Shown one piece after another: positions 35,197-36,190 of a stretch of DNA of 64,000 nt. This stretch comes from a virus (Duplodnaviria > Heunggongvirae > Uroviricota > Caudoviricetes). The position numbers and the translations under genes are program-made. Position 1 is the first letter of the stretch. The number at the start of each line of letters is the position of its first letter. The notes beneath the pieces were generated by a model, which was not told where the DNA came from, searched no databases, and was given only the letters and a program-made list of their open reading frames with translations. The stretch lies in the IMG/VR virus record IMGVR_UViG_2534681834_000006; one strand, written 5' to 3'.

Positions 35197-35199
35197 ACA

Positions 35200-35295
35200 C
35201 AACAGGTAAGGGTATTTTGCGACGTCGGAGATCGCCGTGCTTGGCAGAGGGTTCGAATCCCTACGAAGTACCCTTACCGTTGTGATGAAGTGCAG
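35200..35295 (+). ncRNA. tRNA-like structured element A (extended stem plus canonical T-arm; not a cloverleaf tRNA)
   Basis: Stem ggtaagggta / tacccttacc enclosing gagggttcgaatccct; starts right after the tRNA-Thr CCA. Confidence 0.35.
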
Positions 35296-35425
35296 CTCTT
35301 AGAAGCAACCAGAAGATAAGCATCTGGCTTCACAACATAAACCGCAGGAACGACCAATAAACGGTAGTCCGTATGGAGAACACCCCGTTGAGGAAGAGGC
35401 CTGGCCGGAACCGTAACCGGCACTA

Positions 35426-35530
35426 CAACGTTGAGAACACTGGCGTAACGGGGTCATATCCCAATCTACGAATAAATGTTGCGTTGCAGCGTGACAATCA
35501 GTGTTCTCAACGTTGTGGTGAATGCACAGG
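35426..35530 (+). ncRNA. structured element B (same family as A and C)
   Basis: Perfect 17-bp stem caacgttgagaacactg / cagtgttctcaacgttg around acggggtcatatcccaatctac; 3' tail ggtgaatgc. Confidence 0.35.
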
Positions 35531-35633
35531 CTGATGTGCCGCAACTACAGTAGTGCGCGCTTTGCGGGGCTTGCTACAACCCTGTGTCGGAGTTCAGCAC
35601 CGACCATCACAATTTATTTAGAAACTGTCACCC

Positions 35634-36047
35634 ATGAGTGCGAGAACGGTAATTATGCAGAAAGAGCAGTTTGTTATTTCTTTAGTGGTTAGCACCAGTT
35701 ATCAGGTCGATAAAGTTTCGAAAGAAGATGCATCTGAAATTGATGTTGTAGATGTGTTCGGTAACGAACTCAAAATACCACTTCGTGAATTTAATGAAAT
35801 AGCAGCTCCGTTGGGCAAAATTGACGGCTTGGAGGAATACCACAAGCGAATGATTATCGAACGTGCTCAGCTATGCCAGCGCATAAATAAGCTTGTTCGA
35901 TTCATTGGAACAGATAAATTCCTCACTATAGACCAGTGCAAGCAGTTGGATTTGGAAATTCAGCTCGGAAGCATGATTGATTATCGAAAAGCTCTTGATG
36001 CTCGCTTGGTCCAATTAACCAAAAACTATCCGTCAGCAAGCAGCTAA
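35634..36047 (+). CDS. hypothetical protein flanked by the structured elements
   Basis: 137-aa ORF; alternative ATG at 35655. Confidence 0.45.
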   Translation: MSARTVIMQKEQFVISLVVSTSYQVDKVSKEDASEIDVVDVFGNELKIPLREFNEIAAPLGKIDGLEEYHKRMIIERAQLCQRINKLVRFIGTDKFLTIDQCKQLDLEIQLGSMIDYRKALDARLVQLTKNYPSASS

Positions 36048-36102
36048 TTATAAATTTGGGGCGGATGGTTAGTCCGCCGTTAACTCCATGAAACGGAGTA
36101 CG

Positions 36103-36190
36103 CAACAGGTAAGAGCATTCTCCTGTAACGGGTTCATATCCCAATCTACAGGTCCACCAAGAATGCTCTTTCCGTTGCGGTGAATGCGGC
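36103..36190 (+). ncRNA. structured element C (same family as A and B)
   Basis: Stem aagagcattc / gaatgctctt around acgggttcatatcccaatctac; 3' tail ggtgaatgc. Confidence 0.35.

Follow-up and report, generated by a model that had tools for sequence, protein, structure and literature searches.

LH hairpins: an RNA element of temperate phages with a conserved stem and a variable tip, present in four copies in the ban operon leader of a P1-like phage-plasmid

Introduction

Ribonuclease (RNase) III stems in the early RNA of phage T7 and in ribosomal RNA (rRNA) operons are duplexes of about two helical turns, set between the functional RNAs of a precursor that bears transfer RNAs (tRNAs). The tRNA cluster of phage T4 encodes two stable RNAs, species 1 and species 2, the first of which is cut by RNase III, and Daniels et al. 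1988 (Virology 167:568) are reported to describe RNase III processing sites in the lambda late transcript. Four hairpins of comparable form, named D, A, B and C, are found in a 64,000-nucleotide (nt) stretch of DNA from a virus of the Caudoviricetes (IMG/VR record IMGVR_UViG_2534681834_000006), called the window throughout. They belong to a widespread hairpin family, LH, of enterobacterial temperate phages. The ban operon, which is repressed by C1, has a long untranslated leader that contains all four, and its three tRNAs share their strand.

Among the described systems, phage lambda carries a sequence homologue. The lambda hairpin lies at 44,787-44,862, about 9 nt past the U-run of tR', the terminator of 6S RNA, and its stem, CACAACAGGTAAGAGCATTG...CAGTGCTCTTTCCGTTGTG, is nearly identical to that of hairpin C, scoring 59.9 bits with the covariance model R1 described below. 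As in the window, the hairpin marks an RNA boundary, and a closed GUUGUG...CACAAC domain comes next; however, lambda has one copy in a Q-dependent late leader that lacks tRNAs, whereas the window has four in an early, C1-controlled operon. The likeness to the T7 and rRNA stems is one of mode of working: there is no sequence relationship, and the rRNA stems enclose the product, whereas an LH stem encloses a short, variable and apparently dispensable part. T4 species 1 and 2 are likewise structured non-tRNA RNAs embedded in, and processed with, a phage tRNA unit, but T4 is of the virulent type and the likeness is one of description. YrlA RNA (RF02553) joins a long basal stem to a T-arm-like hairpin, as copy A does, yet its covariance model matches none of the copies and the T-arm is not conserved in the LH family. 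The STnc100/PasD RNAs and the dicF-dicB and kilS-kilR leaders resemble the domain that follows the hairpin, which has the STnc100 architecture of a closing helix and three hairpins, rather than the hairpin itself.

Four hairpins with divergent but complementary stems

The initial annotation, made from the sequence alone, had recognised three copies of a structured element, A, B and C. All three are confirmed, and a fourth, D, had been overlooked (Table 1). The stems pair as described, but they had been drawn too short: they extend over about 19-23 base pairs (bp), open with (C)ACAAC, close with GTTGTG and all keep one bulged A. Hairpin D coincides with inverted repeat I3 (16 nt at 94%), folds at -38.0 kcal/mol (z = -5.3) and scores 25.1 bits with R1 (E = 2.7e-4), D itself being in the training set of that model. 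Hairpin A begins 2 nt past the CCA of tRNA-Thr, in agreement with its earlier description as following that CCA end, next to tRNA-Asn and tRNA-Thr. It folds at -40.8 kcal/mol (z = -4.9), against a weaker -35.0 on the minus strand, and scores 61.4 bits on the plus strand and 29.6 on the minus. Hairpin B (inverted repeat I1, 22 nt at 95%) folds at -52.2 kcal/mol (z = -7.5; minus strand -40.1) and scores 61.7 bits on the plus strand against 39.2, while hairpin C (inverted repeat I5, 14 nt at 93%) folds at -37.0 kcal/mol (z = -5.0) and scores 70.6 bits against 32.2. None of 200 shuffles folds as well as A, B or C. The plus strand surpasses the minus strand in both R1 score and free energy for A, B and D, and in score only for C.

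Hairpins B and C have the common ends CAAC...CGTTG(Y)GGTGAATGC and share a 25-nt inner block, GTAACGGGKTCATATCCCAATCTAC, that is 96% identical, in keeping with the outer ends and inner hairpin first ascribed to them. Their stems differ in sequence and still pair, as had also been proposed; this complementarity is captured by inverted repeats I1, I5 and I7 (the last 13 nt at 92%). The string 'ggtgaatgc' had been taken as a shared end of B and C; it is indeed shared, but it is the start of a second conserved domain. The interior of A contains a canonical T-arm-like hairpin, AGGGTTCGAATCCCT, at 35248-35262. The T-arm-like core once credited to all three copies is canonical in A alone: the B and C loops, UUCAUAU and GUCAUAU, are off consensus and have no A at the fifth T-loop position.

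The hairpins are not tRNA genes, as was held from the start: ARAGORN finds only the three true tRNAs in the window, and the Rfam tRNA model (RF00005) misses A-D even at E<=10. A tRNA pseudogene origin is ruled out for the family and is possible for single interiors.

Stem conservation and exchange of interiors

The hairpins are present at the same places in P1, P7, D6 and Ro157c2YLVW. In P7 and Ro157c2YLVW, copy A keeps its stem around an unrelated interior, CTCCCTTATAGGGCTTGGCTTAAATGCATCGAG, that has no T-arm. Copy C of Ro157c2YLVW keeps its stem and has lost the GGGTTCATATCCC hairpin, and copy C of D6 and P7 encloses a far longer interior whose homologue is another stretch of the lambda late leader, so that lambda closed-domain sequence is found inside the D6/P7 hairpin. 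Since stems are kept while interiors differ, the stem is the unit under constraint. Across the collected copies, stem length has a median of 20 bp and reaches at least 18 bp in 51 of 58, whereas interiors range from 10 to 170 nt and are hypervariable in sequence. A T-arm-like core, originally put forward as common to the copies, is neither the shared nor the defining feature. Nor do the interiors as a class fold better than shuffled sequence (mean z = -0.17, p = 0.31), which disposes of a reading in which they are structured cargo. One tip motif, AC-GGG-NYCAUAW-CCC-AAUC, is common to B, C and several lambdoid copies with different stems.

Pairing was counted over a 19-pair stem in alignment A1, which holds 44 copies from P1-like, lambdoid and Klebsiella phages. 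Across these, 93.7% of the stem cells are paired, and 10 of the 19 pairs show changes on both sides (54 cells); none of 500 shuffles reaches any of these measures, and sliding the partner strand lowers pairing to 37-69%. One copy has exchanged the basal ACAAC/GUUGU for CUAUC/GAUAG with pairing kept. Stem changes in homologues, which might have broken the pairing, thus preserve it. One pair is U-G in 28 of the 44 copies, and several other pairs use G-U; because such wobbles become C-A mismatches on the other strand, they fit RNA of the plus strand only. This strong covariation and the strand-specific wobble pairs uphold the earlier proposal of selection on RNA pairing. The copies were collected by anchoring on the 3' motif, and conservation of the 3' flank is therefore by construction; the stem statistics are unaffected.

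Extent of the LH family

LH hairpins are defined by about 19 pairs of the form (C)ACAAC-A-GGUAAGAGCAUUG / CAGUGCUCUUUCC-GUUGUG, including compensated variants, and by a variable tip; A-D all have this form. Permissive BLAST searches with the B and C regions returned about 100 phage records each, with lambdoid, P22-like and Klebsiella phages among the matches. In phage HK629 the copy is flanked on one side by the holin gene and on the other by an accessory HNH gene that lies downstream of pR', and Klebsiella phage ZX4 has two copies in a promoter-led non-coding insert among tail genes. In an IMG/VR scan, CGTTGYGGTGAATGC occurs in at least 120 loci, and among the matches listed 53 distinct sequences upstream of it form the hairpin.

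The covariance model R1 was built from alignment A1, with A-D in its training set. Run over the 64-kb window, it recovers exactly the four copies, each scoring higher on the plus strand, and the next match has E = 0.67. Beyond its training set, R1 finds second and third copies in several phage contigs and two copies in the chromosome of E. coli K-12. The Qin copy (1,641,157-1,641,226) lies between cspB and essQ in the late operon, and the Rac copy (1,418,472-1,418,568) lies upstream of kilR. The small RNA (sRNA) KilS (1,418,405-1,418,502) starts 2 nt into the 3' arm of this degenerate copy (L128 7473-7569, minus strand), whose interior has TAAATT at -12 to -7 relative to KilS; the Rac copy may have evolved an internal promoter. 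The GTDB species representatives with an R1-confirmed copy belong to Klebsiella, Serratia, Superficieibacter, Pantoea, Kluyvera, Citrobacter, Yersinia, Rahnella and Pectobacterium. A 16-mer scan of GTDB genomes gave mainly chance matches, and R1 was needed to separate true copies from them.

Identical R1 matches (59.9 bits, 87 nt) also appear in unrelated taxa (L144, L147, L177, L180, L185, L211 and L213), namely Algoriphagus, Psychrobacter, Pseudomonas, and metagenome-assembled genomes of Chromatiales and Pseudomonadales, some of them on very short contigs. L180 (415 bp), the one checked, is 100% identical to phage lambda 44,722-45,136, and on this ground the identical matches most likely represent contamination with laboratory lambda DNA.

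Rfam searches at the gathering threshold and at permissive settings match none of the hairpins to a family, which agrees with the first impression that no described family was at hand. The minus strand of B gives microRNA-precursor matches (E = 0.02-0.05) that are chance matches typical of long hairpins, and the sole match to YrlA/Y RNA (RF02553), at 19.9 bits where the threshold is 69, covers tRNA-Asn/tRNA-Thr. The anti-sRNAs AgvB and AsxR have no Rfam match in the window region or in HK629, and none of the papers searched prints the hairpin sequences. The element is best filed as one of a kind already known, the phage RNase III-type processing hairpin, in a family absent from Rfam and from annotations.

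Placement at RNA boundaries and neighbouring closed domains

The hairpins are always placed at RNA boundaries: after the CCA of a tRNA, after terminators and before closed domains. They stand 1-5 nt past a tRNA CCA in three arrangements, tRNA-Thr followed by A in the window, tRNA-Ser followed by C in D6/P7, and tRNA-Thr followed by C in L121, and same-strand tRNA genes are nearby at about one-fifth of loci. Further copies directly follow intrinsic terminators, including those of lambda tR' and IsrJ. In L054 (9495-9571, minus strand), the terminator of IsrJ (Rfam, 60.5 bits) precedes a hairpin copy by only about 8 nt. Contigs of the same kind (L015, L025) contain IsrK and C4 RNAs, and named prophage sRNAs thus adjoin the LH family.

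A second conserved domain begins at 'ggtgaatgc' (GGTGAATGC...) and is entered directly from B- and C-type hairpins. This second frame is a helix, GUUG(Y)GGUG...CACC(R)CAAC, that encloses one constant hairpin at its 5' side and another at its 3' side, with a centre that varies between them. Arrays in phage contigs show the two frames in alternation and end in tRNA genes. The 3' arm of the hairpin shares about 4 nt with the closing helix of the next domain, and the two structures would accordingly compete or stack. A closing-helix score that tolerates G-U was uninformative for the downstream domain, with shuffles scoring equally; the closing helix was assessed by inspection and by Rfam alignment.

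The domain after A encloses a boxA-like GCTCTTA (35295-35301) and a 5-bp hairpin, CCAGA-AGATAAGCA-TCTGG (35309-35327). This segment shares homology with the leader that immediately precedes the N-like antiterminator gene in the P22-like phage SPN9CC, with the same homology in epsilon34, g341c, related Salmonella phages and Sashavirus phages; judged by sequence, 35279-35336 could be a nut-like or N-leader element in the P1 operon. The frame after B recurs in dozens of phage contigs as ...GCCGGAGATCAGCACCGGC-CACCACAAC. The domain after C scores 37.8 bits (E = 5.4e-6) against Rfam STnc100 (RF02076), below the gathering threshold of 47, in an alignment that spans model positions 31-147 of 206 and leaves the first 30 unaligned; its P7 counterpart reaches 43.0 bits. 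STnc100 and PasD are Hfq-binding prophage small RNAs, which a 2026 preprint relates to each other (10.64898/2026.05.13.724894). Clear homologues of the closed domain are the dicF-dicB leader in Qin and the kilS-kilR leader in Rac. Both dicB and kilR are cell-division inhibitor genes of K-12. The domain GGUGAAUGC...CACCGCA leads functionally unrelated small genes, among them dicB, kilR, P1 tciA, the membrane protein gene and the 137-amino-acid open reading frame (ORF) of the window; its positions include L130 18436-18609 and L128 7231-7405 (minus strand).

The ban operon leader

The window derives from a P1-like phage-plasmid, in which Rfam identifies the P1 C4 antisense RNA with its a1/b1 targets and the sok antitoxin. 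Around the hairpins it is 92-97% identical to P1, RCS47, P7, D6 and related phages. In annotated P1, the homologous stretch is the ban operon leader, on one strand throughout, with P1ban/P2ban overlapped by a C1 operator, a 'dicF-like region', trnA (Asn) and trnT (Thr), and farther downstream tciABC, trnI and the DnaB-like helicase gene ban.

Table 1. Positions of the hairpins, closed domains, tRNAs and genes of the ban operon leader in the window
Feature	Position	Strand	Description
dmt	end 34365		
DicF-like terminator	34546-34568	+	upstream of all tRNAs
Hairpin D	34762-34835	+	upstream of tRNA-Asn; stem ACAGGTAAGGGCGCTG / CAGCGTCCTTACCTGT; interior CTGGTTCGATTAACCAG
tRNA-Asn(GUU)	35043-35118	+	ARAGORN; P1 trnA
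tRNA-Thr(UGU)	35121-35196	+	ARAGORN; P1 trnT
Hairpin A	35198-35284	+	basal helix CACAAC/GTTGTG, bulged A, then GGTAAGGGTATTT / AAGTACCCTTACC
Closed domain after A	35279-35336	+	GTTGTGATGAAG pairs with CTTCACAAC
Hairpin B	35421-35520	+	stem CACTACAACGTTGAGAACACTG / CAGTGTTCTCAACGTTGTGGTG; interior motif ACGGGGTCATATCCCAATC
Closed domain after B	35512-35612	+	GTTGTGGTG-AA-hairpin(TGCACAGGCTGATGTGC)...hairpin(GTCGGAGTTCAGCACCGAC)-CATCACAA; leader of 137-amino-acid ORF
137-amino-acid ORF with crAss001_48 domain	35634-36047		Pfam PF21825, E = 3e-15, function unknown
Hairpin C	36101-36179	+	CGCAAC/GTTGCG, bulged A, GG/CC, U-U mismatch, AAGAGCATTCT / AGAATGCTCTT; interior ACGGGTTCATATCCCAATC
Closed domain after C	36176-36296	+	TGCGGTG pairs with CACCGCA around 3 hairpins; leader of membrane protein gene
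78-amino-acid membrane protein, then 275-amino-acid SPFH lipoprotein			after 137-amino-acid ORF
tRNA(CAU)	37402-37477		called Met(CAU); corresponds to P1 trnI
ban	37757		downstream of tRNA(CAU)

As first described, B and C flank the 137-amino-acid ORF. Compared with P1, this ORF is an insertion, placed after the closed domain of B and ahead of hairpin C, and it exemplifies accessory ('moron') ORFs slotted between RNA frames. A strict sigma-70 scan found no promoter-like sites in 34200-37800, against 4.6 +/- 2.0 in shuffles, although the same scan also missed the annotated ban promoters; the result is consistent with one long transcription unit. The DicF-like element is the sole strong plus-strand terminator in that interval, and because it precedes all the tRNAs, read-through or antitermination is needed.

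The tRNA content of the ban operon differs among P1-like phages. In the window, tRNA-Asn and tRNA-Thr score 74.5 and 74.9 bits with the Rfam tRNA model. D6 and P7 have an extra 87-nt tRNA with anticodon UGA (Ser) (L003 2458-2544; L004 2444-2530), which scores 46.6 bits on Rfam tRNA-Sec against a threshold of 47 and carries no annotation in P7, and Ro157c2YLVW has an additional tRNA-Tyr between Asn and Thr. P1 trnI is annotated as tRNA-Ile2 (ileX-like, with a lysidine-modified CAU), and the tRNA(CAU) of the window, despite its call as Met, is probably specific for isoleucine and reads AUA.

In P1, 'plp' and 'upl' are annotated opposite the tRNAs, across hairpins A and B and overlapping trnT (minus strand 35167-35544 in the window; L001 1967-2536). 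Coding on the minus strand was rejected: the frame has no ATG start, and it varies in its ends and in its length (81-143 amino acids) among relatives, being truncated to 81 in the window. The frame is probably not a gene, and P1 plp and upl may be artefacts. Records of the RCS47 type apply the names Plp and Upl to an unrelated SPFH lipoprotein and membrane protein.

A possible role in RNase III processing

E. coli RNase III recognises duplexes of two helical turns, and the median stem falls within the 20-22 bp or so of its substrates. A binding valley that takes about 22 bp has been described for RNase III (PMC6212723), and the enzyme dices long hairpins of exogenous origin when these are expressed in E. 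coli (PMC7373196). The presence of such duplexes at the RNA boundaries of a polycistronic phage transcript leads us to propose RNase III-type processing as the role of hairpins A-D, which would punctuate a precursor of tRNAs, sRNAs and messenger RNAs (mRNAs), a reading to which we give about an even chance. The dispensable, unconstrained tip is what would be expected if only the duplex matters. A processing signal was the closest of the roles suggested earlier; the duplex of about 20 bp, however, points to RNase III rather than to the RNase P or RNase E then named. That the leader is transcribed as a single precursor is suggested by the annotation of P1.

In this scheme, each stem would fold as the polycistronic precursor is made, and host RNase III would cut both of its strands. 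The cut would part whatever lies upstream, such as a tRNA-Thr whose short 3' trailer exonucleases then trim, from the RNA downstream, and would discard or release the variable tip. The downstream domain or mRNA would gain a 5'-monophosphate end just before GGUGAAUGC.

Several points weigh against this role. The RNase III sites reported for lambda may lie outside the 44,787-44,862 hairpin, and cleavage of every copy is something that we infer. The stems also keep more than pairing needs, namely AAGAGCA/UGCUCUU, the bulged A, the U-U mismatch and the U-G wobble; this excess conservation could reflect another binding partner or recent horizontal spread. The Northern-validated sRNA KilS of Rac, which has been assigned its own promoter, starts in the first bases of the 3' arm, so that one copy, if not more, may act in another way. 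In E. coli, the 3' ends of tRNAs normally mature without need of RNase III. Finally, the minimum-free-energy fold of the 603-nt lambda leader does not contain the hairpin, which appears in the centroid only.

Other readings of the hairpins

The over-conservation of the stem, the overlap of the arms, KilS and the lambda fold keep alive a second reading, which we consider unlikely, in which the hairpin is a cis 'anti-seed' or insulator. Its 5' arm (CACAACAGG...) would sequester the GU-rich 3' arm (CCGUUGUGGUG), an arm that doubles as the 5' strand, or the 5' end, of the small RNA or leader domain that comes next, and a transcription start upstream of or inside the hairpin would set whether the domain closes or a GcvB-like GU-rich seed is exposed. 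The helix UGCGGUG/CACCGCA of the STnc100 alignment indeed competes with CGCAAC/GUUGCG of the hairpin across the overlap of about 4 nt, arrays repeat ...CACCACAAC-ACACAAC... junctions, and KilS starts at the top of the 3' arm in Rac, where a transcription start site is reported. CACAACA is moreover the consensus target of GcvB and is used by phage anti-sRNAs (PMC4104026). Promoters inside the interiors, which KilS had suggested, are nevertheless not recognisable in A, B, C, the HK629 copy or most others, and the scan of 34200-37800 gave no promoter-like site. The copy with the compensated CUAUC/GAUAG basal helix argues that the GU-rich sequence itself is not required, and sequestration and RNase III cleavage could both hold.

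Less probable still is that the conserved stem serves as a frame and that the short, hypervariable hairpin RNAs cut out of it by RNase III are the functional product, made much as in the processing of primary microRNAs. Some tips would then be tRNA minihelix mimics and others seed-bearing loops, and we regard this whole scheme, both kinds of tip included, as improbable. If it is true, temperate phages carry exchangeable, fast-evolving sRNA or decoy cassettes, and the diversity of the tips mirrors an arms race with host small RNAs or tRNA-targeting defences.

The features that keep sequestration under consideration do the same, with less likelihood, for an antitermination or anti-Rho element that keeps RNA polymerase going through a leader of more than 3 kb that is largely untranslated and contains terminators. 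Such an element might act via the boxA-like UGCUCUUU in the 3' arm, by analogy with rrn boxA or the HK022 put RNAs. Every context examined is a leader or moron region in a temperate phage, and the majority are leaders known to be antiterminated, namely lambda pR', a leader on the pL side of an Stx2a phage, Rac and P1 ban, the last with its internal terminator at 34546-34568. The commonest 3' arm contains UGCUCUUU, which we take to be the first 8 nt of rrn boxA. The boxA-like sequence lies within the duplex, however, and is replaced with compensation in other copies, by GUUCUC in B, by ACCCUU in A, and elsewhere by GUCCUU or GCGAUC; in lambda, moreover, Q already antiterminates upstream of the hairpin. 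Antitermination therefore seems to us very improbable as the function of the stem.

The initial annotation had also raised decoys for tRNA-targeting nucleases, and this idea finds some weak support. Hairpins that close a UUCRANN loop with 3 bp or more number six, in 5 of 55 distinct interiors, one of which is that of A, whereas 2000 shuffle trials averaged 0.23 and never exceeded 3; their density is 1.76 per kb in interiors and 0.15 per kb in the surrounding loci. The early impression of a T-arm thus reflects a real enrichment, though of a minority feature, and the same-strand tRNA genes near about one-fifth of loci would suit tips that mimic a T-arm/acceptor minihelix for tRNA-binding enzymes or nucleases. 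Yet about 90% of copies have no such hairpin, the orthologous A copies of P7 and Ro157c2YLVW among them. The loop of B and C departs from the consensus, in D it is absent or also off-consensus, and no copy has an anticodon arm, a CCA end or a cloverleaf. The T-arm-like pieces could be recombination remnants of neighbouring tRNA genes; tips may be such remnants, or functional cargo in some copies. As a general function, mimicry of tRNA is highly doubtful.

It is just as doubtful that the hairpins act at the level of DNA, as linkers for module exchange or as single-stranded hairpins in priming or recombination, with the RNA fold incidental. Mosaicism would favour this, in that the B interior occurs with different stems (L089/L042), one stem occurs with many interiors, and lambda closed-domain sequence has entered the D6/P7 hairpin; the compensatory changes and the conserved U-G wobble are, however, unexpected for plain recombination linkers, and the orientation is always along transcription. 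Integron attC sites are rejected, as on inspection the ends ACACAAC and GTTGTGA/GTTGCGG misfit the core sites RYYYAAC / GTTRRRY and no integrase gene is nearby.

Implications

With the LH family, an RNA element that is very common but unannotated receives a name and a model; it occurs in phage lambda, the P1/P7/D6 ban operon, Qin and Rac. The family presents the moron and leader regions of temperate phages as two alternating RNA frames around variable inserts, which bears on the annotation of prophage sRNAs such as PasD, STnc100, KilS and the neighbours of IsrJ. It likewise bears on how phage tRNAs leave their precursors, and on the engineering of P1 and lambda vectors.

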